Shown here: positions 3,386 through 63,483 of the stretch, in pieces
How the letters are laid out: every line of letters starts with the position of its first letter
Numbering within the stretch: position 1 is the stretch's first letter
From: a virus
Lineage: Duplodnaviria; Caudoviricetes
DNA length: 64,000 bases
Strand: one strand, 5' to 3'
IMG/VR virus record: IMGVR_UViG_3300033069_001639
Span: 3,418 to 67,417 of that record
Translations under genes and position numbers: made by a program
The notes under the pieces: generated by a model
Told to the model about the DNA's origin: nothing
The model's database searches: none
Seen by the model: the letters and a program-made list of their open reading frames with translations, nothing else

Positions 3386-3926
3386 AGTGATTGCAGCCGA
3401 AGCAAAGGTTTCCTGCATCGAAGTGCGCGTCGATGGCGAGTGGGGCACGTTCTTCGTGAAGGAATATCCGATTGTGCCGCGAGAGAACGGCAAAGGCGTT
3501 ATCGCCAAGGCCACATGGACCGCAGAATCATCGTATGGGGTCTACGGCTATCACTGGTCCGGCATGGGGCAGCCATTTGGCGACTTCATCGCACAGATGA
3601 ACGACGGCTATCTGCTCGGCAAGATCGGCAAGCAAGTCCTCAATGACGAACTGACGATTCGCGAGATCAAAAAGTACGTTCGCGAATGCCGGCGAGAGAA
3701 ACACATTAACGCGGAGACTGCCCGCGATGCCTATGAAGCGATCGACTCGATTGCCGCAGATTACGAGGGCGACGTCCTCTGTAGTCATTTGATGTGCGCC
3801 TCTGAACTGAGTTTCATCTGCGACTGGCACTTCGCCGTGCAGGAGTACGAAGGCAACGTACAGCAATTCGCCAAGCGGTTGTGGCCCGAATTCGTCAAGC
3901 AATTCAACGCTGCGAGGGCCGCATGA
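3372..3926 (+). CDS. Hypothetical phage protein
   Basis: Coupled ORF; YGYHWSGMG...YLLGKI motif. Confidence 0.65.
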   Translation: MCANEVIAAEAKVSCIEVRVDGEWGTFFVKEYPIVPRENGKGVIAKATWTAESSYGVYGYHWSGMGQPFGDFIAQMNDGYLLGKIGKQVLNDELTIREIKKYVRECRREKHINAETARDAYEAIDSIAADYEGDVLCSHLMCASELSFICDWHFAVQEYEGNVQQFAKRLWPEFVKQFNAARAA

Positions 3927-15825: not shown

Positions 15826-16079
15826 TGGAAATCCTGCTTTGGAACTGGCCTGCCGGCGACGAATCGGCATGGCAGGCTTTGGTTGGCGGCGTGATGACAC
15901 ACGCTCAATATCAAACCACGCTTGCTGCGGTGCAGGCTGATCAAGAGCGGCAAGGGCGAACCGTTCGCCGCGTGAGCATGACGGTTGCCGCGATGCGAGC
16001 GGCCCTAACAAAACACAATCTGCAAAACACGCCAGACGGTCGCGCTGCGGCCTTGGCTCTTGAGGGGACAAATGCCTGA
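15825..16079 (+). CDS. IS passenger hypothetical protein 2
   Basis: Coupled to passenger 1 and to the transposase. Confidence 0.6.
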   Translation: MEILLWNWPAGDESAWQALVGGVMTHAQYQTTLAAVQADQERQGRTVRRVSMTVAAMRAALTKHNLQNTPDGRAAALALEGTNA

Positions 16080-17040
16080 CACTCCGCAAACCTTGATGGA
16101 AGCAGTCCGCTATTACGCCGATCCGAAGGTCTGCTTTGAAACCATGCTGGCCGTGAAGTGGCCAGACGGAAAGATCGTCTGCCCGAAGTGCGGAGGCGAT
16201 GCAGTTGGCGTCGTCGCATCGCGGTCCCTGCTGCAATGCAAGGCGAAGGGGTGCCGCAAGCAATTCAGCGTGAAGGTCGGCACGATCTTCGAAGATAGCC
16301 CTCTCGGCCTGGACAAGTGGTTTGTCGCAGTCTGGTGCATTGCCAACGCAAAGAACGGAATCAGCAGTCTGGAACTGTCGCGAGCGCTGGGAGTTCGCCA
16401 GCCCACTGCGTGGTTCATGCTCCACCGGATTCGGCTCGCGATGCGAACTAAGACCTTCCGCAAGCTCAGCGGAACAGTCGAGGGCGACGAAACATTCATC
16501 GGCGGCAAGGCGAAGAATATGCACAAGAGCCGCCGTGAGAAGCTGATTCGCGGTCGCGGTGCTGTGAACAAGGCAATCATCCAAGGGCTGCTGGAGCGTG
16601 GCGACAGCGATAGTGTGAGCGAGTTCCGCGGCTGGGTGGTTCGCGATACATCGGCAGAGGAAATGCTGCCAAACATCACCCAGAACGTTTACCCAGAATC
16701 CACGATCTACACCGACGCCGCGCCCGCGTACAGCGAGTTGGGCGCTGGCTACTTCCACAAGTGGGTTGACCACATCGGCGAGTACGTTCGCGGGCGTGTT
16801 CACGTCAACGGCATTGAGAACTTTTGGTCGCTGCTCAAGCGAATGCTGCGAGGCACTTACGTTGCCGTCGCCAAGTTCCACCTTGAGCGGTATTTGGACG
16901 AACAAGCGTTTCGGTTCAATCTTCGCGATTTGAACGACGCAGGCCGCTTCCGGCGCGTGCTGGCTGCGGTAGTTGGCAAGAGGCTCACTTACCGGCTGCT
17001 CACCGCCCAGGGTGACGCCGGCTTTATGGGGATTCGCTAA
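16072..17040 (+). CDS. tnp: IS1595-family DDE transposase
   Basis: N-terminal CPKC...CKAKGC zinc ribbon, VEGDETFIGG, YTD, HVNGIENFWSLLKR, YLDEQAFRFN. Confidence 0.95.
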   Translation: MPDTPQTLMEAVRYYADPKVCFETMLAVKWPDGKIVCPKCGGDAVGVVASRSLLQCKAKGCRKQFSVKVGTIFEDSPLGLDKWFVAVWCIANAKNGISSLELSRALGVRQPTAWFMLHRIRLAMRTKTFRKLSGTVEGDETFIGGKAKNMHKSRREKLIRGRGAVNKAIIQGLLERGDSDSVSEFRGWVVRDTSAEEMLPNITQNVYPESTIYTDAAPAYSELGAGYFHKWVDHIGEYVRGRVHVNGIENFWSLLKRMLRGTYVAVAKFHLERYLDEQAFRFNLRDLNDAGRFRRVLAAVVGKRLTYRLLTAQGDAGFMGIR

Positions 17041-17186: not shown

Positions 17187-17541
17187 GTCACCTTGATGAG
17201 TCAAGTGGATAGTTACCAAAACAATTGGGGAGTGTTTGTTGTCATTCGCAGCAGCGACGGCAAAGTTGTAGCCCGATTCGATAACGAACATGACGCCTAC
17301 TCAAAGTGCCTGGAGCTCGCACGATCCGATCGAATTGAGTGGCAGACAAAGCCCGTCACAGGTTTGACAGAACCCCCGCCTTCGGTATGATGCGAGAAGA
17401 CTTTACGGGGTCGGGGGTCAATTCCGCCCTGTATCAAAATAGCGCCTGGTGCACGGGCGCACGTACACATCCAAGTTGTGGCGTGCGCTTGTCTCTTGAG
17501 TGAATATCAGGCCACGCCGCGGCTCTTTCCGCGGAGTTCTT

Positions 17542-17934
17542 ATGTCGGCCTCCTATCTGCAGATCCTCGTCGCCCTCACGACCTACGCCGTTTCACATCC
17601 AGCCGCTTTCGCCCAACTCTGGCAAGCGCTCGTGAATCTCTGGCAGGCCGGTCAACAGGCCGCTGCGACCATCGTCGAGCAGTTCAACGATGCCACGGCC
17701 GCCTTGCCGCGCGACGCTGGCGAGTTGATCGAGGTCACGCCGGAAGTGCTCGCCGCCGAGGGGAACTTCGAAAAGGCTCTGGCGAATGTCCCCACCCCCC
17801 GCGCCAGCACTCGCGGCATCTTCGCCCAGGGCAACGGCAACTTCCGCAAGATCCTCGGCCAGCTGATGAGCTCGCCGCTCGGCCAGGTCCTGCTGCAACA
17901 GCTGCTCGCGAAGATCGGCAGCGCGGCCTCGTAA
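17542..17934 (+). CDS. Helical, possibly membrane-associated hypothetical protein
   Basis: SD GGAG; hydrophobic or amphipathic N- and C-terminal helices. Confidence 0.65.
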   Translation: MSASYLQILVALTTYAVSHPAAFAQLWQALVNLWQAGQQAAATIVEQFNDATAALPRDAGELIEVTPEVLAAEGNFEKALANVPTPRASTRGIFAQGNGNFRKILGQLMSSPLGQVLLQQLLAKIGSAAS

Positions 17935-17983
17935 CGGCAAGGGCTTGTGTCAGGGGTTCCCTCGCAACGTCAAGGGTTCGGCG

Positions 17984-18889
17984 ATGGCTAATCACGGCTT
18001 GTTCATCGGGATCAACTACACCGGGAGCGGCAACGCGCTGCGTGGTTGCATCAATGACGCGCGGAACTGGCTCGCCTTCTTCGGCCCGTTCTGTGCCAGC
18101 GTCAAGGAACTGCTCGAGCAATCCGCCACCAAGGCCGGCATGGTTGTCGCGATCAGCGAGGTCCTCGGCAAGCTCAAGGCCGATGATACGGCCATCGTCA
18201 CGTTTTCGGGGCATGGCACCTACATTCCGGATCGGTCCGGCGACGAAGACGACCGGCGGGATGAAGCTCTCTGCCCGTTTGACCTCAACATGAACTTGCT
18301 GCTGGATGACGAGCTCCGCGACCTGCTGGCCAATCGTGCGGCCGGTTCGCGCGTGTTGATCATCACGGACTGCTGCCATTCCGGCACGATGACGAGAGGC
18401 ATCGGCGCGGATTCCCCGGAACTGCTCCCATCGCCGCGTTACGTCGACTTCGCTTCGCTGACGGGCTGCATGTGTCCCAATGATGTCGATCGGATCACGC
18501 GCAAGGCTCGCGAGTTCCGCAAGCGACGACGGCATGCAAAGGCTGCAGAGCCAGCCATGAACATTGTTCACCTCGCCGGCTGCCTGGACACCGAGGTCAG
18601 CTATGACGCCACGATCGGCGGTCTGCCCTGCGGAGCGTTCACGTATTACGCGCTGGCCGCGCTGAAGGCCCGGCAGACCAAGGGGCTGACCTTCGGTGAA
18701 TGGCGCGATGCCGTGACGCCGGTTCGGCTGCCCAGCAAATACTACCCGCAGACGCCGGTTTTTAACGGGCCGATGTCGCTGGTTGTGCCGGGATTTGAGC
18801 CGGTGATCTCGCCGCCGGTTCCTGCCCAGGGCGAAGTCGTTCGATATGTGCTGGGCGGCAAAACGTTCGAAGTGAGGGAGGTGAAGTGA
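17984..18889 (+). CDS. Metacaspase/orthocaspase (peptidase C14)
   Basis: IGINY...LRGCINDA, FSGHG (His), DCCHSG (Cys), GAFTYY, QTP. Confidence 0.93.
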   Translation: MANHGLFIGINYTGSGNALRGCINDARNWLAFFGPFCASVKELLEQSATKAGMVVAISEVLGKLKADDTAIVTFSGHGTYIPDRSGDEDDRRDEALCPFDLNMNLLLDDELRDLLANRAAGSRVLIITDCCHSGTMTRGIGADSPELLPSPRYVDFASLTGCMCPNDVDRITRKAREFRKRRRHAKAAEPAMNIVHLAGCLDTEVSYDATIGGLPCGAFTYYALAALKARQTKGLTFGEWRDAVTPVRLPSKYYPQTPVFNGPMSLVVPGFEPVISPPVPAQGEVVRYVLGGKTFEVREVK

Positions 18890-19416
18890 TGGACGCTGAC
18901 GTTGTTGGCGGATTTCCAATTGCCGACCCGAATTGCAAGGGCTGCGGCAAACCACTGCTGATTGAAAACGCCTGGATGACCGATGGTTGTCCATGCAATA
19001 CGCCACTCGGTGTAAACAGCATGAACGAAACTCGCTGGCGGTTGCTTCAGCAGCTTCAGCAGCAACAGGCGCACGAACTGGAGTCCATCAGGACAGAACT
19101 GGCGCACATGCGAGATACCGATGCCGTTCAGGATCGACAGGCACTGCTTGAGAATGTAGCAGCGCTGTCGCGAGAACTTGAAACACTCAAGGCTGCCGGG
19201 GAGTCGGCACTTGCCTTTTTGAAGCGAGCTGCATTCAACGAACATCGCATCGTTTCGTCGGGCGACTTGACGCCGATGCAAATCACAGAAGCGCAGGCCC
19301 GCAAGTTGTTCTATGTCGAACCGGGCGGCGGTCTTGGCTGGGCGCTGGTGCCGTGGGAGTTAACGACTCCCAAGGATCGCAAGCGCGAAGAAGAGTATTT
19401 CGCGAACAAAAAGTAG
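18886..19416 (+). CDS. Hypothetical protein (Cys motif plus coiled coil)
   Basis: CKGC...CPC; GTGA overlap. Confidence 0.6.
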   Translation: MMDADVVGGFPIADPNCKGCGKPLLIENAWMTDGCPCNTPLGVNSMNETRWRLLQQLQQQQAHELESIRTELAHMRDTDAVQDRQALLENVAALSRELETLKAAGESALAFLKRAAFNEHRIVSSGDLTPMQITEAQARKLFYVEPGGGLGWALVPWELTTPKDRKREEEYFANKK

Positions 19417-19431: not shown

Positions 19432-21033
19432 ATGTACTGGATTATCGCAATGGTCGCACTCGCACAAATCGACGCCGCACAACCAGCGGTCGCGGTGCGC
19501 AGTACGCCAGTGCTGGCCAAAGTTGCCGACCCATACGACGCTGCGGCCTGGGCGCTCGAAGATGCCTTGGCCCTGCGTGCCAACAATCAATCCGCCGCCG
19601 GCTGCCTCTACATCTGGATTGGGCCCGACGAGTCGCCGGCCATTGCCAATATCAATTCGCTCGCGGTCAATTCCGCCCTCTCGCATTCGTCAACGATTCA
19701 GCTTCCCGACCTCACCGCCGGCGGCCGTCTGATTCGCTGGGATCTCGCGAAGCTCGCGCCGAAGCGCACCGACTTCCTGCGGCTGGTTGGCGTCATCAAC
19801 GATCTGTCGATCGGCGAACCGTTCTGGCATGTTGATCTGAAGGCCCTCGGGCTGCCCGCCGCGAAGTGCCCGCCATTCGTCTGGATGGATGGGCGAACCT
19901 ACTCCCTGACGTTCTCTGTGCCTGCGCCAGCGACGGCTGAAGCGTATCAACTTCTACAGCACGAAACCGGGCTGAAAACGCCGCTGCTGCGTGCGGATTA
20001 CTTTCTGCGGCGGATCTCGTCGACGATCCAATCGGGCCGGTATTACCACGTCCGCGGCTTTATCACTTACGACGAACACGGGAAAGAGAAGCGGTTGACC
20101 GAAACTGAGATTTTCAAGCAATTCGGCAACGATGTCGGCTTGTCGCGGAAGGTTGAGGGCGACGATCGAGTGGGCATTGTGATCTCGGGAGTGACCGGCC
20201 AGGCCCGCGCGGTGGAATTCGGCCAGGGTGCAATCGGCGGCTGGCGGATTACCTACGATCGCTTCTCAGACAACGAGAAGATCACTGCCCATCCGCTGTA
20301 CAACCTGCTGTCGGTGGTTGAGAAGTCAGACGGCCGCGAAACGATCTTCGAAATGCCGAACGGGCTGCTGGCGTACATTCTGACCAACGGCAAGGGTGAG
20401 TTGGTCGATGAAGCTCCGAATAAGCTGGTAACGGATCATCGCACGCCGGTTCCACATCCCGCGCAGTTGTTTCCGCCGCTGTCGTGCGTGCGCTGCCACG
20501 GGCCGGCAGGTGGAGTGCAAAGGACGCCGAACGATGTTTCACGACTCCTTAAGACGCCAACTCAACTGGACGCTTTCGCCGATTTCGGGGGCACTGGTTT
20601 TTCGGGAGTCGACATTGACCGACTTGCCGGCCTTTACGGCGGCGACTTCGAACGCCGTTCTCGCGACGCCCGCAACCGTTACGCCGATGCCGTCTTCACA
20701 GCGACGCGCGGACTTACGGCGACGCAAGCGGCTGCTGGATGGGCTGCTCAATACGAAGGCTACTGGCAAACGCCGGTAAACGCCGATCGGCAATTGCTCA
20801 ATCTCGGCTGGCGTGCTCGATCTCCGCAGGCCGCGAACAAAGCCCTTGAAACGCTGCTCGCGAAACAGGAAACCGATCTGCTTGTGTTCGGGCAGAAAGC
20901 GACGCGCGAGGATCCGCTCATTGTCGCCCCGCGGCTGGGCATTCCGATCCGGTCGCAGGACTTGGAGCGCGTGCAGGCCGAGCAGTTCCGCCGAGCTTAT
21001 TTGCATCGCGGGGAATTGGGGGTGGCACCGTGA
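19432..21033 (+). CDS. Secreted protein with c-type heme motif
   Basis: Signal peptide MYWIIAMVALAQ; GRETIFEMPNGL..Y.L.NGKG...SCVRCH. Confidence 0.7.
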   Translation: MYWIIAMVALAQIDAAQPAVAVRSTPVLAKVADPYDAAAWALEDALALRANNQSAAGCLYIWIGPDESPAIANINSLAVNSALSHSSTIQLPDLTAGGRLIRWDLAKLAPKRTDFLRLVGVINDLSIGEPFWHVDLKALGLPAAKCPPFVWMDGRTYSLTFSVPAPATAEAYQLLQHETGLKTPLLRADYFLRRISSTIQSGRYYHVRGFITYDEHGKEKRLTETEIFKQFGNDVGLSRKVEGDDRVGIVISGVTGQARAVEFGQGAIGGWRITYDRFSDNEKITAHPLYNLLSVVEKSDGRETIFEMPNGLLAYILTNGKGELVDEAPNKLVTDHRTPVPHPAQLFPPLSCVRCHGPAGGVQRTPNDVSRLLKTPTQLDAFADFGGTGFSGVDIDRLAGLYGGDFERRSRDARNRYADAVFTATRGLTATQAAAGWAAQYEGYWQTPVNADRQLLNLGWRARSPQAANKALETLLAKQETDLLVFGQKATREDPLIVAPRLGIPIRSQDLERVQAEQFRRAYLHRGELGVAP

Positions 21034-21287
21034 ACCCCTATGAATCGCCGACGCACTGCGAAGAACTTCGTCCCGTGGATCTGACCGCGTTATGGGTGTT
21101 GCTGGTAGTAGCGTTTTGGCCGGCCTTGTTCCTTGTGGTGTTTCCGGTCGCATTGATTGAGCAAATTCGCAAAAAGGACGATTTAGGCCAGTTTGTCTGG
21201 GGAATGTTCTGGGCAGCAGTCCTTGTCTTTGACGTCGCAATCGGATGGTTCCTGCTGATTCAATTCGTATCGAAGATTTTTATTTGA
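21030..21287 (+). CDS. Two-TM membrane protein with NPYESP N-terminus
   Basis: Two hydrophobic helices. Confidence 0.65.
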   Translation: MNPYESPTHCEELRPVDLTALWVLLVVAFWPALFLVVFPVALIEQIRKKDDLGQFVWGMFWAAVLVFDVAIGWFLLIQFVSKIFI

Positions 21288-21295
21288 GGAAACCA

Positions 21296-22069
21296 ATGAG
21301 TCCGTACACTTTCGCCGCAATCGTAATTCTCGTCTTTGAAATGCTACTCGCATCGCAAGCCAGCGCCTGTGGCCGTTGCGGCATCTTCGGCCGCGGCTGC
21401 CGATTCGCCCACGCCCCCGTCGTTCACCACGCCGCGCCGGCCATCGTGAAAGCCCCCGACACGATCCAGAACTTCGTGTTCAACAACATTTCGCCGCCGG
21501 GTGATCTCGCTCCCCGCGGCGCCACGGTCTACGGCCTGTCCCGCGCCCTCGAATACAACGCACCCAATTCCGCTCTGTACCTCGATAACGCCCGCCGGGC
21601 ACTTGAATTCGCTGGCGATACAACGGTAAGCGCTCGCACGATCGACACACTGACCTTAGACGCCGCAGCGATTGACGCCCGCGGCCGAGCGGTAGAAGCG
21701 GCTTTCCGGTCACTGGCTCCCGATACGGCGACGGCAACGCGCAGCACGACAACGAAGGTGACGATCCGCAACGGCATTCCGGTGATCGACGAACTGCCCA
21801 CCCTGCCTGCCCTGCCTGCCCAAGACGATCCGCCACCAGTGCCGCGTGACCTGCCATTGCGCCCGGTTGACAACGTTACCTGTATGCGATGCCACGGCAA
21901 GGAAGGTGTCGCGGCCAGTGAATTCTTGCTCGATGGCCCGTTGACCTTGGAGCAGTTCGCCAAAGCAAAGGACGCCATTGAAGCCGGACGGATGCCCCCA
22001 AAGACAAACTTGACGCCAGCCGAAAAACTTAGCCTTGTCGCGAGGTTCGGAAAGCTGGTTCGCCAATAA
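21296..22069 (+). CDS. Secreted protein with C-terminal cytochrome c-like domain
   Basis: Signal peptide; CMRCH...GRMPP (putative axial Met). Confidence 0.72.
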   Translation: MSPYTFAAIVILVFEMLLASQASACGRCGIFGRGCRFAHAPVVHHAAPAIVKAPDTIQNFVFNNISPPGDLAPRGATVYGLSRALEYNAPNSALYLDNARRALEFAGDTTVSARTIDTLTLDAAAIDARGRAVEAAFRSLAPDTATATRSTTTKVTIRNGIPVIDELPTLPALPAQDDPPPVPRDLPLRPVDNVTCMRCHGKEGVAASEFLLDGPLTLEQFAKAKDAIEAGRMPPKTNLTPAEKLSLVARFGKLVRQ

Positions 22070-22918: not shown

Positions 22919-23203
22919 ATGTCCCCAGAAGCCTGGATCGGTTTAGCCGCGATGATCCTTACTGCCTTGGGGGTGCTGCTTGGCGCTGCCTGGTGGATGT
23001 CGGCGCTGTACTCGCAGGTCAGCAATATCCAAACGAACACGGAAACGACGAACACCAAAATCGACACGCTCACCGAAAAGATGGACGGCGAGTTACATGA
23101 CGTGCGAACCGTCCAGCGCGAGCAAGGCAAAGACATTGCGGAACTTCGCGGGCGAGTCGGCAAGGTCGAGGGAATTTTAGAAGCGGAGTTTGGAGCGGAG
23201 TAA
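22919..23203 (+). CDS. Single-TM coiled-coil protein (holin/hemolysin XhlA-like architecture)
   Basis: N-terminal TM, then heptad repeats ending RVGKVE. Confidence 0.55.
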   Translation: MSPEAWIGLAAMILTALGVLLGAAWWMSALYSQVSNIQTNTETTNTKIDTLTEKMDGELHDVRTVQREQGKDIAELRGRVGKVEGILEAEFGAE

Positions 23204-29562: not shown

Positions 29563-30975
29563 ATGGGTGCCGTTGTCCGACGACCGTCGCCGGTCCGCTA
29601 TGCTCTGCCGGTCTATCAGAAGCAAGAGGACTTCTTTCAAAGCACGAACTTCATCACGGGGTTCTGTGCCGGCCGCGGTTCGGGCAAATCGTATGTTGGT
29701 GCCTTGAAGGTTTTGACAACCGCCAAGGCCGGCGAACGGTGGATGGCGATTTCGCCGACTTACACCGTCATTGAGGATACGACCTGGCCGACGTTCAAGG
29801 ATATCTGCAAGCTCGCGCGAGCCTGGCGATCGGGGGTCAAGAGTCCGACGCCAGTTGCTCGGTTCTATACGCAGGACGGCGGAACTGCAGAACTCGTCTT
29901 TCGCTCGGCGGACAAACCGGAGCTGCTCCGCGGGCCTTCGCTCCCGGGCATGTGGTATGACGAGGCCTCGGTGATGTCCGAGGAGGCCTTCAAAAACGGC
30001 CTGCCGTCGCTGCGGTACAAAGGCCGGATGGGAAAATGCTTTCTGACCTTCACGCCCAAGGGACGACGGCATTGGACGTTTAGCGCGTTCTATCGCGAGA
30101 TCCCCGCGGGCGAAGATACGACCGGTGCGATTGAACTTGCCGGGAAATTCTATCGACCGAAGAACAATCGGGCGCTCATCCGCGCCCACACGCTCGAGAA
30201 TCCATTCCTGGCCGAAGAGTATTACGAGCTCCAGCGCGACAACATGACATCGGCCATGGCGGCCCAGGAACTTGCCGGCGACTTCGTCGATCTGCAGGGC
30301 CTGATCTTCACCGCGGCTTGGCGCTACGTCGATGCCGCCCCGCGGATTGCTGCTCGCGTCCGCTATTGGGATCGTGCGGCGACGCCTGGCGGCGGCAAAT
30401 ACACCGCTGGCGTTCTGATGTCGCGCAGCGAAGCGGGAGCGTATTACGTCGAGGATGTTGTCCGCGGGCAATGGTCCGCAGCGGAGCGCGACAAGATCAT
30501 CGTCGAGACCGCGCGACGCGATGCCCGCCGATACGAAAACGAAGTCGTGATCTATGCCGAACAGGAAGGCGGATCCGCGGGCAAGGAAATCAGCGAACAG
30601 TTCATTCTGATGCTGGCGGGTTTCCCAGTTTACCGCGACATCGTCAGCGGCCAACGTCGCAAGATCATCGACAAGCAAGAAATGCCGGGTGAAGCCAAGA
30701 TTATTCGCGCGCAGCCGCTTGCCGCGCAGTGCGAGGCCGGTAACGTTTACTTGGTTCGCGGGCCATGGAACGACGAGTTCACAACGGAGTTGATCGGCTT
30801 CCCGTTCTATACCTTCAGCGATCAGGTCGACGGTGCTTCCGGGGCGTTCAATAAGCTGGCGAAGGGAATCAACAGCGATCCCGGCGAGGTCAGCAGGCCA
30901 GACAGCCCGACGGGTGGCGATCAGTTCGGTTTGACGTTGATGAAAAGCCGGCAGCGGCGGAAAGGTGGGATGTGA
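29563..30975 (+). CDS. terL: Terminase large subunit
   Basis: AGRGSGKS, LRGPSL...WYDEA, RYWDRAAT, DQVDG. Confidence 0.93.
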   Translation: MGAVVRRPSPVRYALPVYQKQEDFFQSTNFITGFCAGRGSGKSYVGALKVLTTAKAGERWMAISPTYTVIEDTTWPTFKDICKLARAWRSGVKSPTPVARFYTQDGGTAELVFRSADKPELLRGPSLPGMWYDEASVMSEEAFKNGLPSLRYKGRMGKCFLTFTPKGRRHWTFSAFYREIPAGEDTTGAIELAGKFYRPKNNRALIRAHTLENPFLAEEYYELQRDNMTSAMAAQELAGDFVDLQGLIFTAAWRYVDAAPRIAARVRYWDRAATPGGGKYTAGVLMSRSEAGAYYVEDVVRGQWSAAERDKIIVETARRDARRYENEVVIYAEQEGGSAGKEISEQFILMLAGFPVYRDIVSGQRRKIIDKQEMPGEAKIIRAQPLAAQCEAGNVYLVRGPWNDEFTTELIGFPFYTFSDQVDGASGAFNKLAKGINSDPGEVSRPDSPTGGDQFGLTLMKSRQRRKGGM

Positions 30976-32351: not shown

Positions 32352-32830
32352 GTACAAGCTATTTGATCGAGACAGTTCACGTGCTCGCGCGTGCCGAGCG
32401 TAGGTATCAACAATGGGAAGAGGGCCAGAAAATGACAACCGTTCAACTACCTGACGAAGTTCAGTCCGCGCGAGAGATCACGATTGGCGAAGGCGATATT
32501 CTCGTCATCAAACACCAGTACGCGCTGCAAGGCGACGGCAGGCGACATCTGCACGACTGGGCACGCGAGCTAATCGACAAGATCGAAAAGAAAGTAAGCA
32601 TCATTGTTTGCCCTGATTCAAACGACATTGCCGCCATGCCGCGCGACGACGTAAGGGCAATGCTGCAGGAGATGGCGTCGGCAATCGACTGCGACATCGT
32701 CGACCGTGCGGTTCCAAAACTCGACGGACGACTGCGAGATGCTGTCCTGAATGCTATCAGCTGCACAGACATTGATCCGAGTGAGTTCATGGAGATCATA
32801 GACGAAAACCTCGCCAAATCGCCCGAATGA
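32348..32830 (+). CDS. Hypothetical protein
   Basis: Start is 32348 or 32432. Confidence 0.55.
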   Translation: MSTSYLIETVHVLARAERRYQQWEEGQKMTTVQLPDEVQSAREITIGEGDILVIKHQYALQGDGRRHLHDWARELIDKIEKKVSIIVCPDSNDIAAMPRDDVRAMLQEMASAIDCDIVDRAVPKLDGRLRDAVLNAISCTDIDPSEFMEIIDENLAKSPE

Positions 32831-33363
32831 TCACCTACACCCCCGCCGATGCCGACGTCCTCGATCGAGTCGCCCGCCTGATGGCAGCGCATCACGGCAT
32901 GCTCGTTGACTACAAGGTGCGCGTCGACTGCCTCTTCGCGCATCCCGACTTGGACGAGGATGGCGCACCGAAGGGCCCGCCGGTCACATTGAACGGTTAT
33001 CCATGCGCAGCCCGGGTGAAGATCACCAACGCCAGGGACCGCGCGAAAGGTTGCGGCGACGCCGAAATTCTGATCGATCACGATCTCTATCAGGAACTGC
33101 CGGACGCCGAGCGCGACGCCCTGCTTGATCACGAGCTGCAGCACCTCGAATCGACCGGCGAATACGACGATATGGGGCGGCCGAAGCTAACCATGCGGCT
33201 ACACGATCACAGTTTCGGCTGGTTTGATGTCATCGCGCAGCGTCACGGTCGGGCGAGTTTTGAGTTCCAGCAGTTCGAGCGGTTCCAACGGGGGACGTTT
33301 CAACCTTTCTGGGTTGGGTTCGCAGAGGCGGTTGATACAATCATGGCGGAGGAAACACTATGA
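32827..33363 (+). CDS. Phage putative metallopeptidase
   Basis: LDHELQH (HExxH), RLHDH. Confidence 0.8.
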   Translation: MITYTPADADVLDRVARLMAAHHGMLVDYKVRVDCLFAHPDLDEDGAPKGPPVTLNGYPCAARVKITNARDRAKGCGDAEILIDHDLYQELPDAERDALLDHELQHLESTGEYDDMGRPKLTMRLHDHSFGWFDVIAQRHGRASFEFQQFERFQRGTFQPFWVGFAEAVDTIMAEETL

Positions 33364-34082: not shown

Positions 34083-36578
34083 ATGACAACCGATTCCCGC
34101 GGCATCCCCGCGTCATTCATCCAAGCGGAAGCTCGTGATCCGGCGGAAGCATGGCCCGGCGCTCCGCCAAACTTCGGCCAACCTCTTGTCCCGCACATCG
34201 CAACCGTCTCCGGCATGACCGGCGGTGCAGGCCGCGCCTACTCTTGGGCCGACGAAGCGCTGCGCGACAGCCGCGAAAATGCCGACAAGATGCTGACGGA
34301 CTGCGGCATTACGGAATGCCTCGAAGCCCGCCTGCGATCGACCGCGCTTCTCAATTGGCACATCGCGCCGGAAAACGAAAACTCGTCCGACGAGAAGGCC
34401 CTCGCCGACGAGATGACGAAGATCATCACGTGCACGCCACACTTCGCGAAGTTCCGCTGGGCAATGGGGCTGGCGCGCTGGTACGGCCGCTACGCCGTTG
34501 TGCCGCAATATGGAATCGACTGGGTCAACGGAAAGCAGCGAACCGTTGTCACGCGCTGGGAGCCGCGCCACGGCGACAAGCTCGTCTTCCGTTACGACGA
34601 CGGCAGCCACCGAACCCAAGCCGACCAGGTAGGCATTCGCATCGGCGGCGCTCATACGTGGATCGACACCGACAAAAAAGATTACCGCGGCAACGATCTG
34701 CGGCAAGTCGAAGCGACAAATCACGGCCTCGTTTACTGGCTGACCGATAAACAACGCCGGCTGATCGTCGTCAATAAGCACATCATCGAGGACGGGCCCT
34801 TCGAGGATCCATTGCGGGCCGGTGCCATTCACGGCATCGGGATCCGCGATCGCATCTATTGGACTTGGTACGGGATGATCGAATGTCTGGCCGACATCCT
34901 TTGCTACCTCGAACGATCCGCCTTCGGTATTGAGATCTGGAAGTACCCCGCCGGCAACAAGCAGGCCCAGACCCGCGCGGAAGAGGCCGCAAAGAAGATC
35001 ACGAGCAACGGGCGAACTGTGCTGATCGTCCCCGTGTTTCAGGGAGAGAACAGCGAGCAATTCGGCGTCCAGCACATCGAGCCAGGCCTCGGCGGCGTCG
35101 AGCAAGCGATGACCATTGTAAGGGAATACTTTGGCCACAAAATCAAACGCTACATCCTGGGCCAAACCCTCACGAGCGAAGCCGATGCGACCGGCTTGGG
35201 TTCCGGTGTTGCCGATGCCCACCTCGCGACCTTCGCTGACATCATTCGCTGGGATGCGCTGAACGATCAGGAAACGCTGACCTCCGACAAACTGCGATGG
35301 ATGCAGCTTTGGAACTTCCCAACGTCGCGCGGCATCAAGCTGCGGATGGTGATCGACACCGATTCGCCTGACGCCGAGAAGAAAATGAAGGGCTACGAAT
35401 CGGCCTGGGGAATGGGCGCGCGGATCAAGGAAGAGGATGTTCTCAGCGTGATCGGGGCCTCAGTGCCAAAGAACACGGACAAGGTTTTGCTCAATCCCGC
35501 GGTCTCTGGTCAGCAGGGCGGCGGCTTCGGCAGTTTTGGCGGCGTGAACCTTGGTCAGGCTCAAGGCCAGCGGCCTCCGCTTCCCGATTCGCAGCAGGAG
35601 GCAATCAAGCGGCTGGCAGACGTCGAGAAGTTCATCAACGGCGTTTCGCTCGGAAAGATCATGGCGGATCGGCACACCTACACGCTAAGCCTCGATGAAG
35701 CCGCGAAACACACCGCGACGCCGAGCGAAGCGCAGGCCAAGGCCGGCAACTATCGCAAGGGCAAAACGAACCTGCACGGCCTCACGATCTCGATCGAGAA
35801 CGCCAAGGGGACGCGGCGGAAGCCGGACTGGCCGGAACTGTCGGCGCATTATGGGTACCTGAATCGAACCGAAGGCGGGGACGGCGAGCATATCGATGTT
35901 TTCATTGGCCCGAACCCCGATAGTGAATTGGTGTTTGTCATCGATCAGGTGAAAGAGTCCGGCCGGTTTGACGAGCACAAAATCGTGATGGGCACTACCT
36001 CACGACAGGAAGCATTGGACCTGTATCTCGCCAACTACCCGGCTGGCTGGAAAGTTGGGCCAGTGACGGCGATGACGATTGACCAATTCAAGGCGTGGTT
36101 GGCCGAAGGGGACACCTCGAAGCCGCTGGCGCCGCAAGTGTCAAAGTATACGTTCAAGGAAAGCGAGCACCCGCGCGACGATGCCGGGAAGTTCACGGAG
36201 GGGCCAGCAGTAGCGAGCAAAGCCGACAGGGCATCATCGGAGCCATCGAGCAACAAGGCCCCGGCAAAGGCCACCGGTGAAGTTGCGGGCAGCTTTACCG
36301 AACTGAAGGAGCGGCACCCCGAGCTTGCGAAGTTTGCCGACAACCCAGAACCATTGCCGAAAGTTCGCGGCGGCAAGATTGCATATCTAACGGCGCATCA
36401 GCACGCGATTTATCTGGACTTGGCCAAGGCCCGCAGCGCGGGCAACGTGACACCGGAAGAATGGAACGCGGGGCTTGCGGCAATCCGCGCGATGGATGTT
36501 CCCAGCAATCAGGTTGCGCCACCGACGGTCAAGAGTCGGCTGTTTAGCGCTATCGGCCGGGCAAAAGGTAAACGCTGA
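34083..36578 (+). CDS. DUF935 (Mu gp29-like) portal fused to an InPase-like domain
   Basis: ILGQTLTSEA portal motif; AGNYRKG...ISIEN.KG...HYGY..RTEG.DGEHIDVF...FDEHK; ESEHPRDDAGKF. Confidence 0.8.
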   Translation: MTTDSRGIPASFIQAEARDPAEAWPGAPPNFGQPLVPHIATVSGMTGGAGRAYSWADEALRDSRENADKMLTDCGITECLEARLRSTALLNWHIAPENENSSDEKALADEMTKIITCTPHFAKFRWAMGLARWYGRYAVVPQYGIDWVNGKQRTVVTRWEPRHGDKLVFRYDDGSHRTQADQVGIRIGGAHTWIDTDKKDYRGNDLRQVEATNHGLVYWLTDKQRRLIVVNKHIIEDGPFEDPLRAGAIHGIGIRDRIYWTWYGMIECLADILCYLERSAFGIEIWKYPAGNKQAQTRAEEAAKKITSNGRTVLIVPVFQGENSEQFGVQHIEPGLGGVEQAMTIVREYFGHKIKRYILGQTLTSEADATGLGSGVADAHLATFADIIRWDALNDQETLTSDKLRWMQLWNFPTSRGIKLRMVIDTDSPDAEKKMKGYESAWGMGARIKEEDVLSVIGASVPKNTDKVLLNPAVSGQQGGGFGSFGGVNLGQAQGQRPPLPDSQQEAIKRLADVEKFINGVSLGKIMADRHTYTLSLDEAAKHTATPSEAQAKAGNYRKGKTNLHGLTISIENAKGTRRKPDWPELSAHYGYLNRTEGGDGEHIDVFIGPNPDSELVFVIDQVKESGRFDEHKIVMGTTSRQEALDLYLANYPAGWKVGPVTAMTIDQFKAWLAEGDTSKPLAPQVSKYTFKESEHPRDDAGKFTEGPAVASKADRASSEPSSNKAPAKATGEVAGSFTELKERHPELAKFADNPEPLPKVRGGKIAYLTAHQHAIYLDLAKARSAGNVTPEEWNAGLAAIRAMDVPSNQVAPPTVKSRLFSAIGRAKGKR

Positions 36579-54245: not shown

Positions 54246-55808
54246 TCACTCCTCGAAGTCTTTCCGCCGAAGAGTGGCCTTTTTGCGACTACTGACCGTG
54301 GGATTACCTTCCAGGTGGTGATTCAACGGTCCGTAGTTAAAAAAAAAGACTGTGCCCCCGACCGGGAACCATTTCCGCCGGTCGACCTTGCTCTGCTCAA
54401 ACGCGAGCTCGACACGGTCGATGACCTGCGCCAGCGCGGCGCGAACGGTCAGCAAATCGCCGTGCTGCAGAACATGGTCGAGTTCCCAGATCTGTGCCGC
54501 AATCGCCTCTGGCGATCGTCCACTACGTTCAACCTTGGCAGCTTTTACCTGCTCGGCAATCGCTTCTCGCTTCTCCTTCAGCTTTCGCATGGCCTCTTGA
54601 ACGGCTGGAACTAGATCAGGCTCGACATCGAGAAGCCGCTCTGCAGCTGAAGCGATTTTGCGATCGATTTCGGCCAGTTGCTTGGCGACGTCGGCTTGAA
54701 CCGTTTTCCGCCGGCCGGGCCCGCGCAAATGGGCGATGTGTTCGGCGAGCGCCTTTCGCGAGCCCATCAGGATCAGATCGCGGATCTTGTTGACGACGAG
54801 CTTCATCGCCAGCTTGTTCAGAATCGAATTATTGGTGCACCCCTGGCCGGTGTAGTTGGTTTGGCAGATGTAGCGGTCATAGCGCTTCTCATAGAGCATC
54901 TTCGCACCGCACTTCTTACAGACCAGCAGACTCGACAGCGGGCCGCCTGGCTTCTTGCCGCTGCGGCTGGAGTGATTGTTCGTGCGGCGCCGGTTCACTC
55001 GCTGCACGCGTTCCCAGAGGGCTTCGTCGATGATGGCCGGATGCGTCCCCGCGTTTGTAAATTCCTTGTCTGTGATCCTGCAGAACTTGGCGCGCGAATA
55101 CCGGCCGATGACCTGATTGCCGCGATAGGATTCGTTCTCCAGCATCTTGCGGACCTGCCGCGCATACCAACAACAGCCGCGCGGCGATGGAATGTTCTCG
55201 GCATTTAACACCGCGGCAATCGACGGCATGCCCATCCCTTCGGCGCGCATTTCGAAGATCCGCCGAACCGTTGCAACTTCGGTCGCATCGCCTAGCACAA
55301 GAGTTCCACTCTGCTTTTTGTAGCCATAGGGCGAGATCGTCAGCCACTTTCGCGCGACCACCGCGGCACGACGGCCGCGGACTGAATCATGCGCGAGCGA
55401 TTTGACGTATTCCGCTTTGCCGTGCTGATTAACCGAAGCTGTGAGCCAACCGCCGAGCGAGTTCCAATCGATCGGGCCTTCCTTGACTGTTTCGAGTGTT
55501 ACACCAGCGACGCGGAGCCGATGCCAATAGTAGTTGGCTTCCATCGGGTCGAACCGCGAGAAGCGGGACTGGTCCCAGCACAGCACAGCTTTGAACAGTT
55601 CCTTCTCGGCATCAGTGATGAGATTTTGGAATTCAAGGCGCTGCTTGCTCTTCCAGCCACTGATCCCCTCATCGATGTACCATTTCACGATGCGGTAGCC
55701 GCGCTTCGCAGCATAGGCGGCTACCTCGGTTCGCTGCTCCTCGATCGATTTGTCCTGCTTGTCCGAAGACATCCGCAGATAAGCGGCAACGGGAATCGTC
55801 GCTTTCAT
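54246..55808 (-). CDS. int: Large serine recombinase (integrase)
   Basis: AYLRMSSDKQ..SI..Q, YIDEGISG, DQSRFSR, PYGY, LVCKKCG zinc ribbon, coiled coil. Confidence 0.95.
   Translation of the reverse strand: MKATIPVAAYLRMSSDKQDKSIEEQRTEVAAYAAKRGYRIVKWYIDEGISGWKSKQRLEFQNLITDAEKELFKAVLCWDQSRFSRFDPMEANYYWHRLRVAGVTLETVKEGPIDWNSLGGWLTASVNQHGKAEYVKSLAHDSVRGRRAAVVARKWLTISPYGYKKQSGTLVLGDATEVATVRRIFEMRAEGMGMPSIAAVLNAENIPSPRGCCWYARQVRKMLENESYRGNQVIGRYSRAKFCRITDKEFTNAGTHPAIIDEALWERVQRVNRRRTNNHSSRSGKKPGGPLSSLLVCKKCGAKMLYEKRYDRYICQTNYTGQGCTNNSILNKLAMKLVVNKIRDLILMGSRKALAEHIAHLRGPGRRKTVQADVAKQLAEIDRKIASAAERLLDVEPDLVPAVQEAMRKLKEKREAIAEQVKAAKVERSGRSPEAIAAQIWELDHVLQHGDLLTVRAALAQVIDRVELAFEQSKVDRRKWFPVGGTVFFFNYGPLNHHLEGNPTVSSRKKATLRRKDFEE
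54288..54337. other. Candidate attP site
   Basis: 50-bp imperfect inverted repeat: ACTACTGACCGT...ACGGTCCGTAGT (11/12), inner arms 6/9, central dinucleotide CA at 54312-54313. Confidence 0.6.
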
Positions 55809-56245
55809 GCTGCCTCCCCGCGGTAGATGCCGAGCTTCAGATTGAGCTTCGGCCGCCTGGCCAGCCATTCGAGACGCTTCTTCACGTCGTCGAACATCTT
55901 GCTGCGCGCTTTCCGCGTTGGCTGATATTCCTTGCCGATCCAGTCGACCAGCGATTCGCCGGGGGCAAACAGCCCCATGCGCAAAGTCGGCAGGTAATAG
56001 TTCGGCGTCGCCTCAAGATAGAACTTGCGAGGTTCGTCAACGAAGAGATCGATGCCGTAGATCAAAATCGAGCCACGACGAAGCAGCGGCCGCTCGAGGA
56101 AATCCTTGGGATCGATCGGCGCTTGCGAGTAGTCGCGAACTTCCGTGACTTGAAATGACCGGCGGACCCATTCCAGCGGGATGCCCATCTTGTTGCAGAC
56201 CGGATACCAATCCGAAAACACTTCTCCAACCACAGGACGCTTCAT
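55805..56245 (-). CDS. Hypothetical protein with WYL-like segment, coupled to integrase
   Basis: RPLLRRGSILIYGIDL..DEPRKFYL; ATGA overlap with int. Confidence 0.55.
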   Translation of the reverse strand: MKRPVVGEVFSDWYPVCNKMGIPLEWVRRSFQVTEVRDYSQAPIDPKDFLERPLLRRGSILIYGIDLFVDEPRKFYLEATPNYYLPTLRMGLFAPGESLVDWIGKEYQPTRKARSKMFDDVKKRLEWLARRPKLNLKLGIYRGEAA

Positions 56246-60882: not shown

Positions 60883-60955
60883 TGCGGGGTGGAGCAGTTG
60901 GTAGCTCGCTGGGCTCATAACCCGGAGGTCGCTGGTTCGAGTCCAGCCCCCGCTA
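60883..60955 (+). tRNA. trnM: tRNA-fMet (CAT), initiator type
   Basis: Cloverleaf, 1:72 mismatch, GGG/CCC anticodon stem, GTTCGAG T-loop; no encoded CCA. Confidence 0.95.
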
Positions 60956-60957
60956 TT

Positions 60958-61089
60958 TGGTTCGACGGCTGTGAAAACAGCGCCACTACAACAAGCTGCT
61001 CGCGTAACGATCGCGATGTTACTCGACGTGGTGAGTCGCCCTCGAAAGATCGCAACTTTGGGGCCGACTTGTTCGACTCCGCCGGACCA
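60958..61089 (+). ncRNA. Candidate structured ncRNA 2, between the tRNAs
   Basis: 10/11-bp closing stem and three internal helices, GAAA tetraloop, TTCGACT T-loop-like motif. Confidence 0.5.
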
Positions 61090-61092
61090 TAC

Positions 61093-61166
61093 GACGCGTG
61101 TAGCTCACTAGGCAGAGCGTCTGATTCCAAATCAGAAGGAAGTCGGTTCAAAACCGACCCGCGTCG
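61093..61166 (+). tRNA. trnW: tRNA-Trp (CCA)
   Basis: TCTGA-TTCCAAA-TCAGA arm, GTCGG-TTCAAAA-CCGAC arm, G73 discriminator, one acceptor mismatch (T7:C). Confidence 0.9.
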
Positions 61167-61203
61167 CTGAAATTTGACGGACCAACATTTCATGAGGGAT
61201 CTC

Positions 61204-62559: not shown

Positions 62560-62717
62560 CCTGCAACCACATCGATCCGTCGAAATGGAGTCACCGCATC
62601 GAGAGCGGTCAGAAGAAAGCGTTTTGCATGGGGTGCGGAAAATTCATGGGATATGTGCATCAGGAAACGAAGCCGGCCAAGCCGGAGAAAGTGAAGTCGA
62701 AAAATGCCCACGTATAG
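62556..62717 (+). CDS. Small Cys/His protein
   Basis: CNH...CMGCGKFMGY; ATGA overlap. Confidence 0.55.
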   Translation: MTCNHIDPSKWSHRIESGQKKAFCMGCGKFMGYVHQETKPAKPEKVKSKNAHV

Positions 62718-63483
62718 AAAGGCCTCGGCCGAAGTAAATCAGATCGTCGAGGAGATGGTTGAAAAGTTCCACGGTCCGCTGCGTGATGCCGGCGTTCAAA
62801 TCGAATGCCTGTTCGCCTACGCGTTGACCGACGACAACGGCGATTCGACCGGGCCGGCGCTGAAGCTCGGCGGCTATCCCTGCAATGCAGTTGTCCGCGT
62901 GTTGAATCTCAAAGATCGGACCGTCGGGCGCGGCGATGCCGAGATCGTTATCGACGGCGATCAGTGGGACACTTGGGACGATGAACAGAAACGGGCCCTG
63001 ATTGATCACGAGATCGAACATCTCGAACTGAAGACGGATGACGACGGTGTTATCCGCGACGACCTCGGCCGGCCGAAGCTGCGCCTGCGAAAGCATGACC
63101 ATCAATTCGGCTGGTTCGATTCGATCGCCCGCCGGCATGGCGCCGCGTCGTTCGAAGTGCAGCAGTTTGCCGGCATTGTGAAGCGCCGGATTCAGGCTTG
63201 GCTGCCTGGCTTCGATATGGCCGCGACGGATGCGCCGGAGGTTTATGACCCGGAAGCGGAGAAGGATTTAAACAGCGATTTGCGGGCGACGGTTGAAGGA
63301 GCACTCGACGACGCCGGAATCTTGGCGAAGCGGTCCAGCGGCGGCATCGACTCGGTCACGTTCACTGCGAAATATCCGGGCCGAGAAACCAAGTCGGTCA
63401 CGATGACCTCGAAGCAGCTCGGCAAGGTCGCGAAGGCGGCGAAGTCCGGCAAGGGCCGGAAGCTCGCGGCGTCAACAAGATAG
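62704..63483 (+). CDS. Phage putative metallopeptidase (paralog of 32827)
   Basis: IDHEIEH (HExxH), RKHDHQFGWF. Confidence 0.8.
   Translation: MPTYRKASAEVNQIVEEMVEKFHGPLRDAGVQIECLFAYALTDDNGDSTGPALKLGGYPCNAVVRVLNLKDRTVGRGDAEIVIDGDQWDTWDDEQKRALIDHEIEHLELKTDDDGVIRDDLGRPKLRLRKHDHQFGWFDSIARRHGAASFEVQQFAGIVKRRIQAWLPGFDMAATDAPEVYDPEAEKDLNSDLRATVEGALDDAGILAKRSSGGIDSVTFTAKYPGRETKSVTMTSKQLGKVAKAAKSGKGRKLAASTR

Follow-up and report, generated by a model that had tools for sequence, protein, structure and literature searches.

Two predicted exported haem c proteins encoded beside a caspase-family protease in an uncultured phage of planctomycete-type bacteria

The DNA analysed here is a stretch of 64,000 nucleotides (positions 3,418 to 67,417 of the IMG/VR virus record IMGVR_UViG_3300033069_001639), referred to below as the window. 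It covers nearly the whole of that 67,417-base record, for which CheckV gives a completeness of 100%, and belongs to an uncultured phage of planctomycete-type bacteria that carries a pair of genes, open reading frame (ORF) A and ORF B, each with one haem c motif. Both are part of a cassette headed by a caspase-family protease, with the order caspase, orf176, ORF A, orf85, ORF B, orf167, ORF C and orf94. The cassette is co-directional and tightly packed, with stops and starts overlapping between neighbours. Its G+C content does not differ from that of the phage, which is even along the window (0.55 to 0.62). The features on which the analysis centres are the following (aa, amino acids).

19432-21033, + strand: ORF A, a 533-aa predicted exported protein with one haem c site
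20485..20499, + strand: haem-attachment motif CVRCH of ORF A (C352, C355, H356), where helix 350-359 begins behind the beta domain
21296..22069, + strand: ORF B, a 257-aa predicted exported (possibly lipid-anchored) protein
21881..21895, + strand: haem-attachment motif CMRCH of ORF B, with a candidate distal Met in MPP at 21992-22000
17945..18889 (probable start ATG 17984), + strand: caspase-family (C14) protease at the head of the cassette (PF00656, E 1.6e-20)

Motifs, family and predicted fold of ORF A and ORF B

A first reading of this DNA, made from its letters and translations alone (the sequence-only reading), had reported SCVRCH in ORF A and CMRCH with a distal MPP in ORF B. Both are present: SCVRCH occupies residues 351 to 356 of ORF A (nucleotides [nt] 20482-20499), and TCMRCH lies at nt 21878-21895 of ORF B, with MPP at 21992-22000. 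Their conservation shows that neither arose by chance. Residues C352, C355 and H356 of ORF A are invariant in all 49 close homologues and in all 100 sequences of a diverse set, and exactly one CxxCH is found in 149/150 of the top cluster representatives, the exception being a 293-aa fragment without that region. Among the 100 diverse sequences, the only other invariant residues are Y204, E303 and G361. No invariant distal Met, Lys or second His was detected in this set, as would suit an open (probably five-coordinate) haem with no conserved sixth ligand.

The same reading had given both proteins signal peptides. This stands for ORF B, where the signal peptide is clear by eye (a hydrophobic stretch, then ASA/C), and for many homologues of ORF A, the distant ones showing plain signal peptides or signal anchors by eye; the copy of ORF A in the window has just a short signal-like stretch with no charged n-region, also judged by eye. 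The conserved CxxCH motifs, together with the export signals, agree with the earlier view of the two as putative periplasmic haem proteins. One distant homologue (L011:5162-7003) starts with MNRRSFLITGAK..., which looks like a twin-arginine export signal and is odd for a c-type cytochrome, as these proteins are normally exported unfolded via Sec.

In a collection of 5.8 billion proteins, ORF A had 49 homologues with identities of 28 to 100%, all of them unnamed or "hypothetical" and none with a Pfam domain, and a profile search recovered 3,260 cluster representatives at E ≤ 0.001, 638 of them at E ≤ 1e-30. Neither ORF A nor its relatives matched any model in Pfam, NCBIfam or PHROG, and a Pfam search of 20 long representatives found no extra domain except for one NikA-like match. 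The family is mainly viral, with viruses making up 71 to 91% of the nearest ESM Atlas clusters, so that the initial remark that cytochrome c genes are not standard phage cargo needs a correction: this family is not exotic in phages. Among GenBank phages, the sole match (23% identity) is in the unannotated 595-kb metagenomic phage LR756511.1.

The AlphaFold2 model of ORF A, built with 49 sequences (predicted local distance difference test [pLDDT] of 88.3 and predicted template modelling score [pTM] of 0.87), shows an N-terminal alpha/beta domain (residues ~28 to 195), a beta-sheet haem domain (~197 to 370), which is ended by the CxxCH helix (350 to 359), and a C-terminal helical domain (~390 to 525). 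Comparison with solved structures by sequence gave no match for the single sequence and one chance match for the profile (E 0.64), and Foldseek of the model against PDB and BFVD found nothing at E ≤ 0.001. In an exhaustive structural alignment to 48,161 PDB representatives, one family filled ranks 1 to 5 with weak matches over model residues 197 to 412, and three of these five are cytochromes P460 (6hiu_B 4.9, 6amg_A 3.7 and 2je3_A 3.6). Residues 195 to 428 modelled alone with an 11-sequence alignment gave a poor model (pLDDT of 52.7), which again ranked 7s5o_A, 8brk_A and 6hiu_B first, only a weak echo of the full-model result. Judging from the model, the central domain of ORF A likely has a P460/c'-beta-like fold. 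This likeness has no support at the sequence level, as PF16694 did not match ORF A even at E ≤ 10 and hhalign of ORF A against 20 planctomycete P460 domains aligned only nine residues at the CxxCH (probability of 12 to 21%), and ORF A is therefore not placed in the PF16694 family.

ORF B was called at 21245-22069, with ATG 21296 as the most likely start because GAGGA is found 9 nt upstream, the codon follows the stop of orf85 and the database holds the 257-aa form. Behind its signal peptide come a Cys-rich CGRCGIFGRGCRF motif, a conserved middle region and a C-terminal class I cytochrome c domain. We found 43 homologues, many of which share contigs with homologues of ORF A. The CxxCH is kept in 41/43 (the exceptions are fragments of 195 and 161 aa), M-P-[PEK] is found ~37 residues past it in 40/43, and CxxCGxFGxxC directly follows the signal peptide in 29/43. 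The window protein itself matches PF13442 with an E value of 7.4e-4 and 20 bits, below the cut-off of 27; the same model matches 16/29 of its relatives at E ≤ 0.01, PSCyt1 matches 3/29, and all 12 PDB profile matches of ORF B are c-type cytochromes. From these profile matches, its last 70 residues are predicted to be a class I cytochrome c domain.

A motif of the type G-I-F-x-R/Q-G appears in three places: close to the mature N terminus of ORF B (CGIFGRGC), in a small secreted ORF located 5' of ORF A in a related locus (AGIFRSRRGG, L014:9424-9783) and in orf144 of the window (RGIFAQGNG, 17500-17934). Its recurrence may reflect a common site for recognition or cleavage, or chance.

Cellular relatives and neighbouring proteases

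To place the pair among cellular proteins, the ORF A profile was compared with 401 genomes sampled from the phylum of the metagenome-assembled genome that holds locus L014. Matches were found in 10 genomes (E values of 1e-8 to 1e-19), one of which holds a full prophage copy; the other nine show partial matches, covering about residues 178 to 440 of ORF A, in proteins of 592 to 1817 aa with two CxxCH motifs. The only Pfam domain common to these cellular A-like proteins is an N-terminal PSCyt1, to which subsets add a Ser/Thr kinase, DUF4384 or TPR repeats, and no Pfam or NCBIfam model covers the remainder, the A body. Profile-profile comparison aligned the ORF A family to this A body with a probability of 99.7% (E 3.4e-25, 360 columns, ORF A residues 39 to 460), and hhalign aligned the ORF B family to the PSCyt1 domain of the same proteins with a probability of 88.6%. 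The sequence-only reading had likened the GRETIFEMPNGL...SCxxCH block to a domain of cellular planctomycete signalling proteins; this resemblance is real, and some of the proteins matched carry both a Pkinase and a PSCyt1 domain. By these profile alignments, the phage pair is a single cellular two-haem protein (PSCyt1 plus A body) split over two genes. This split/fused relation is our main argument that A and B act together, and the fusion of some cellular forms to a Ser/Thr kinase favours a sensing role.

The gene neighbourhood in cells was analysed at 14 A-like loci taken from 8 genomes. Of these, 11 have a caspase-domain ORF no more than 3.5 kb away from the A-like ORF (in L172 and L173 the caspase domain rests on a mixed hidden Markov model [HMM]); none was found at L171, L180 and L181, the last of which is cut by the contig end. 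Over five genomes (32 Mb) PF00656 had 12 matches, and 6 of these are at A-like loci; two of the genomes have a single match each, and both of these are among the six. The five genomes hold 10 A-like genes, for which, by our own arithmetic, ~0.06 PF00656 matches would be expected by chance within windows of ±8 kb. An HMM built solely from the two phage caspases matches the three kinase-type cellular loci (E values of 5e-6 to 6e-5). The cellular caspase proteins also carry WD40 repeats or an FGE-sulfatase-type domain and, by eye, have signal peptides or a membrane anchor, so they appear to be in the same compartment as the haem protein. The A-like genes in cells are followed by a conserved secreted protein of ~380 aa, usually placed before the caspase gene (360 to 473 aa in nine examples, 20 to 48% identical, from L168-L171 and L175-L179; e.g., L177:7718-8911), for which no homologue was detectable in the phage loci.

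For the phage side, we collected 46 loci, including the window, from viral contigs, GTDB genomes and metagenomes; they contain 29 distinct ORF A sequences, and the locus scans used a 14-sequence subset of the ORF A alignment. Where at least 900 nt were available downstream, an ORF B-type gene (recognised by its signal peptide, its C-terminal CxxCH and its match to the ORF B HMM; confirmed by tblastn in L006) comes next after A in 23/24 distinct loci, and L081 is the one without it. In L007 (11512-12090), as well as in L009 and L010, a gene for an HNH homing-type endonuclease (PF13392) is found between the A and B homologues, so the pair tolerates interruption, as it does with orf85 in the window.

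A Pfam-recognised peptidase is encoded on the same strand within 2.6 kb upstream of A in 15 of the 23 distinct loci with enough upstream sequence. Its class varies: matrixins (M10) are found in 10 loci, a number slightly inflated by the near-identical L077 and L086, caspases (C14) in 2 (the window and L012), subtilases (S8) in 2 and a papain-type peptidase (C1) in 1. The link to the caspase proposed in the sequence-only reading is thereby widened: what recurs in phages is a protease slot, occupied by a caspase in only 2/23 loci, and it is in cells that the partners are specifically caspase-domain proteins. Homologues of ORF A do co-occur with caspases, in the window, in L012 and at the 11 cellular loci mentioned above. 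The caspase of the window contains both dyad motifs (SGHG and DCCHSG) and has no signal peptide, and its counterpart in the equivalent position of L012 is 83% identical. HExxH is intact in all 10 M10 proteins, and five of them also have PG_binding_1, which is the ordinary matrixin pro-domain layout and thus not evidence of wall binding. Caspases, matrixins, subtilases and papains are types normally made as latent enzymes, which suits a triggered step.

The short phage matrixins begin with LCGVED, LCGVDD or FCGLAE (L006:9234-9872, L008:9183-9833 and L087:1179-1865), a start resembling the cysteine switch (PRCGxPD) by which animal matrixins are kept latent, and they may be thiol- or oxidant-activated zymogens. 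Two unrelated loci have a gene resembling staphylococcal nuclease (PF00565; L012:6020-6406 and L083:2912-3370) in the interval from the protease to ORF A, where the window lacks one.

The position of the cassette is not fixed. It precedes the packaging genes in the window, follows baseplate genes in L013 and L066 and follows a capsid gene in L002. None of 24 viral records with related terminases (40 to 51% identity) contained ORF A; these records are only distant relatives, and their lack of ORF A does not decide between a core and an accessory gene.

Other cassette genes and the phage genome

The remaining members of the cassette are small.

18886..19416, + strand: orf176, the sole gene between the caspase and ORF A, its start overlapping the caspase stop
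21030-21287, + strand: orf85, a small membrane protein (two hydrophobic helices) that separates A from B in this phage alone
22035..22538, + strand: orf167, located between B and C in the window and behind the terminase in L012
22560..22814, + strand: ORF C, an 84-aa secreted low-complexity (V/Q/R/G-rich) protein
22919..23203, + strand: orf94, with one N-terminal transmembrane helix and a coiled coil (holin-/spanin-like shape)

No family match was found for orf176 in Pfam, NCBIfam or PHROG, and it is kept in L012 only (65% identity). The closest relative, L012, has no orf85, its B gene directly following A, and orf85 belongs to no Pfam family. For orf167, there were weak PHROG matches of unknown function, no Pfam family and, by sequence search, no PDB relative; its Cys and His motifs resemble, by eye only, those of a small papain-type peptidase. 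A small secreted low-complexity ORF follows B in 20/21 loci, recognised by eye and not by homology. If ORF C is cut after AEA (at AxA), its mature form starts with HGGG, and the same kind of cut would leave an N-terminal His in three other loci (HGGT, HGRV and HGGL; L012:9235-9480, L006:12449-12748 and L008:12471-12743). An N-terminal His is able to bind metal or haem; the feature is not shared by other loci. L012 has a 76% identical copy of orf94, and the analogous ORF in L006 matches phrog_2658, "hol-like" (E 3e-7).

Elsewhere in the window, the following features were located.

16060-17040, + strand: IS1595-family transposase (DDE_Tnp_IS1595, E 3.4e-39, plus zinc ribbon)
29563-30975: large terminase
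34083-36578, + strand: Mu-type portal (PF06074)
54246-55868, - strand: serine integrase (PHROG search)
60883-61167: tRNA-Met and tRNA-Trp

Most genes are on the + strand. Pfam and PHROG recognise replication or DNA-handling genes (HNH, a methyltransferase, a DnaC-like loader and an SNF2 helicase), and capsid and tail genes are also present. The transposase gene lies between the SNF2 helicase and the caspase block and looks like an insertion sequence riding in the phage; tblastn did not find it in the related locus L012. At its C terminus the portal carries a fused "InPase" domain (PF18823, E 4.8e-41), which portals do not usually have. A "putative phage metallopeptidase" (PF18894) is present in two separate + strand genes (32827-33363 and 62704-63483), so that, with the caspase and orf167, the peptidase-like proteins of this phage may number four.

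Scans for promoters and terminators in the cassette region gave only chance-level results. A near-consensus sigma-70-like site (11/12) is located at 17364-17391 on the + strand, just 5' of orf144 and the caspase block (TTGACA, a 16-nt spacer and TATGAT), and sigma-70-like sites in the region are at chance level in number. Four wastewater runs labelled "RNA-Seq cDNA", flagged as probably DNA, contained only short contigs with 90 to 100% likeness over parts of the caspase, A and B.

Interpretation and comparison with known systems

Taken together, the conserved haem c motifs, the homology to cellular proteins, the constant order of A and B and the recurrent linkage to proteases point, with a probability that we put a little above even, to an exported two-haem redox or ligand-sensing module that is coupled to a protease. 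ORF A and ORF B would be exported via Sec and work as one unit, with haem attached to both after export by the cytochrome c maturation system of the host. The beta domain of the A body would carry the second haem, probably five-coordinate, in a P460/c'-beta-like fold, and the His/Met haem of ORF B would pass electrons to or from this open-sided haem, which might bind or react with a small ligand or oxidant such as nitric oxide (NO), O2, H2O2 or hydroxylamine. The state of the pair would in turn be coupled to the protease at the cassette head, a caspase here and matrixin, subtilase or papain types elsewhere; the haem pair may activate the protease, be cut by it or only act beside it. We favour a late role in infection, directed at the envelope or at killing the host.

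Several observations weigh against such a coupling. A-like genes are rare in cells, being present in only 10 of the 401 genomes sampled, and no recognisable protease was found upstream in 8/23 phage loci, one of them with a weak M12 match. An N-terminal signal peptide is absent from all 14 of the phage proteases that were inspected; protease and haem proteins thus start in different compartments in the phage systems, and contact between them would need membrane permeabilisation late in infection. The varying class of the protease fits an interchangeable effector and equally mere co-location in a lysis or accessory region. Lastly, the data establish the motifs, the homology, the split/fused relation and the gene linkage to proteases in phages and to caspases in cells, whereas haem attachment, electron transfer, the ligand and the control of the protease are inferred.

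A bolder extension, which we consider unlikely, is that planctomycetes and their phages possess an extracytoplasmic counterpart of the cytochrome c-caspase axis, in which a dedicated two-haem protein, its P460-like sensing haem being supplied by a class I cytochrome c, directly gates a caspase-type protease. Cells would do so via the WD40 or FGS domains fused to the caspase. Phages would have captured and split the haem protein and paired it with interchangeable zymogen-type proteases, triggering envelope proteolysis or host death at a moment defined by redox state or ligand.

The strongest specific rival, which partly overlaps with the protease-coupled module that we prefer, is that the cassette serves lysis or egress through the unusual planctomycete envelope. 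A signal-less protease would replace the endolysin and be released by a holin, and A, B and C, preloaded in the periplasm, would attack or loosen the wall or outer layers in a spanin-like manner, the haem chemistry serving envelope breakdown or the timing of lysis and not sensing. No canonical muralytic domain was found in 65 window ORFs (Pfam), in 41 (PHROGs) or in 145 neighbouring ORFs of 18 related loci, and no canonical endolysin, holin or spanin was recognised by Pfam or PHROG in the window or in the same 145 ORFs. The lack of signal peptides in the 14 proteases is what would be expected of classical endolysins, and small ORFs with transmembrane helices, some with coiled coils, follow the cassette in ~9 to 11 of 21 loci (by eye, with no control), one of them being the "hol-like" ORF of L006. 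The cassette sits before packaging genes or after baseplate or capsid genes, places where lysis genes are found in known phages, and its occurrence in phages with differing structural modules, together with its absence from all 24 phages with related terminases, follows the host-bound mosaic pattern of lysis genes. However, the linkage of the haem protein to caspases extends to cells, where phage lysis plays no part, and is left unexplained. The absence of a recognisable endolysin is weak evidence in a poorly known phage group, and the matrixins with PG_binding_1 give no evidence for wall binding. Haem proteins are not known to act in phage lysis, and no haem-dependent lysis protein was found in the literature searched. 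We regard lysis as the specific purpose of the cassette as a minority prospect, rather unlikely as it stands.

The P460/c'-beta-like fold would also suit a self-contained auxiliary redox pair, by which the prophage would aid its lysogen, for instance in NO or hydroxylamine detoxification, with the nearby protease as unrelated cargo. The phage is temperate, as indicated by its serine integrase, and PF16694 proteins are present in 38/301 genomes of the host phylum, so P460 chemistry matters there. However, most of the family is viral and its diversity is great, an uncommon profile for a metabolic passenger gene, and the cassette is a packed, co-directional block of overlapping neighbours with phage-like G+C. 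The protease linkage, moreover, recurs in phages and in cells, and the 533-aa ORF A has two further conserved domains that are not found in P460. We consider this explanation improbable.

Comparably low in our estimate is a prophage-borne exclusion or abortive-infection system, made of an extracytoplasmic sensor (A, B and C) and an interchangeable protease effector. The protease class is indeed swappable beside conserved partners, the position of the cassette varies among phage genomes, and the cellular caspase partners carry the WD40 or FGE-sulfatase-type domains that are typical of the conflict systems described in PMC7159879. However, the sensor is exported and the phage proteases are not, and the cassette is inside the main co-directional gene block, which is no typical accessory hotspot.

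Finally, that the CxxCH motifs bind no haem and are disulfide or metal sites of structural or enzymatic envelope proteins is suggested by the failure of ORF A to match any cytochrome family by sequence and is very hard to reconcile with a His as invariant as the cysteines before it, with the cytochrome c profile matches of ORF B and its Met at the expected distance, with haem c proteins as the fold matches of ORF A, their motif being at the same domain end, and with the Pfam-recognised cytochrome domain of the cellular relatives.

If the protease-coupled module proposed here is functional, the linkage would be an example from prokaryotes of caspase control by a cytochrome, bearing on the origin of the logic of the animal apoptosome as well as on how phages kill or open cells with protein-rich envelopes. 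Naming the ORF A family (at least 3,260 clusters) would give an annotation to a block that recurs in phages of a little-studied phylum, and the split/fused relation provides a concrete redox pair that can be tested. The module would also represent a new architecture built on the P460/c'-beta fold, with relevance to nitrogen-oxide chemistry. The open-access PMC and bioRxiv literature, in its accessible parts, described neither P460-like cytochromes in phages nor a cytochrome-caspase gene neighbourhood in bacteria. The linkage of cytochrome and protease thus appears to be undescribed, and c-type cytochromes and protease-bearing cassettes are each of an already known kind.

Among known systems, phage lysis cassettes are similar in combining one signal-less hydrolase with small exported or lipid-anchored and small membrane proteins, in their mosaic position and in being specific to host groups; the ORF A/ORF B cassette differs from them in having no muralytic domain and no known holin or spanin family. 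The bacterial caspase conflict systems, in which caspase-fold effectors are joined with repeat or FGS-type domains, are enriched in planctomycetes and have interchangeable effectors (Kaur, Burroughs, Iyer and Aravind 2020, PMC7159879). Unlike the phage cassette, they are built around NTPases and are cytoplasmic, and the available part of that paper describes no haem partner for them and mentions cytochrome c only for the animal apoptosome.

With the animal Apaf-1/cytochrome c/caspase-9 apoptosome, the cellular loci share the assembly of a c-type cytochrome, WD40 repeats and a caspase-fold protease. However, no STAND/NB-ARC ATPase was seen, the bacterial parts look extracytoplasmic, and the class I fold of ORF B is all that relates the haem protein to mitochondrial cytochrome c. 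In the window ORFs that were scanned, Pfam recognised neither NB-ARC nor WD40, the latter being found only on the cellular caspase proteins. The resemblance to a cytochrome c-caspase pathway, offered as an analogy from the start, stays at most a functional one, consisting in gene linkage.

The P460/c'-beta proteins (PF16694; PDB 2je3, 6hiu, 7s5o and 8brk) resemble ORF A, as modelled, in being a periplasmic mono-haem c domain made mostly of beta strands, with no conserved sixth ligand and with a CxxCH helix that closes the domain on its C-terminal side. ORF A differs in its size, which is three to four times theirs and includes additional domains at both termini, in showing no detectable sequence relation and in being always paired with a separate cytochrome c. 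The closest known counterparts are the cellular PSCyt1-domain proteins (PF07635, "Planctomycete cytochrome C", ~600 to 950 aa), which are true homologues of the phage A and B. In the phage, the two parts are separate genes in reversed order, and ORF B has its own Cys-rich N terminus and middle region.

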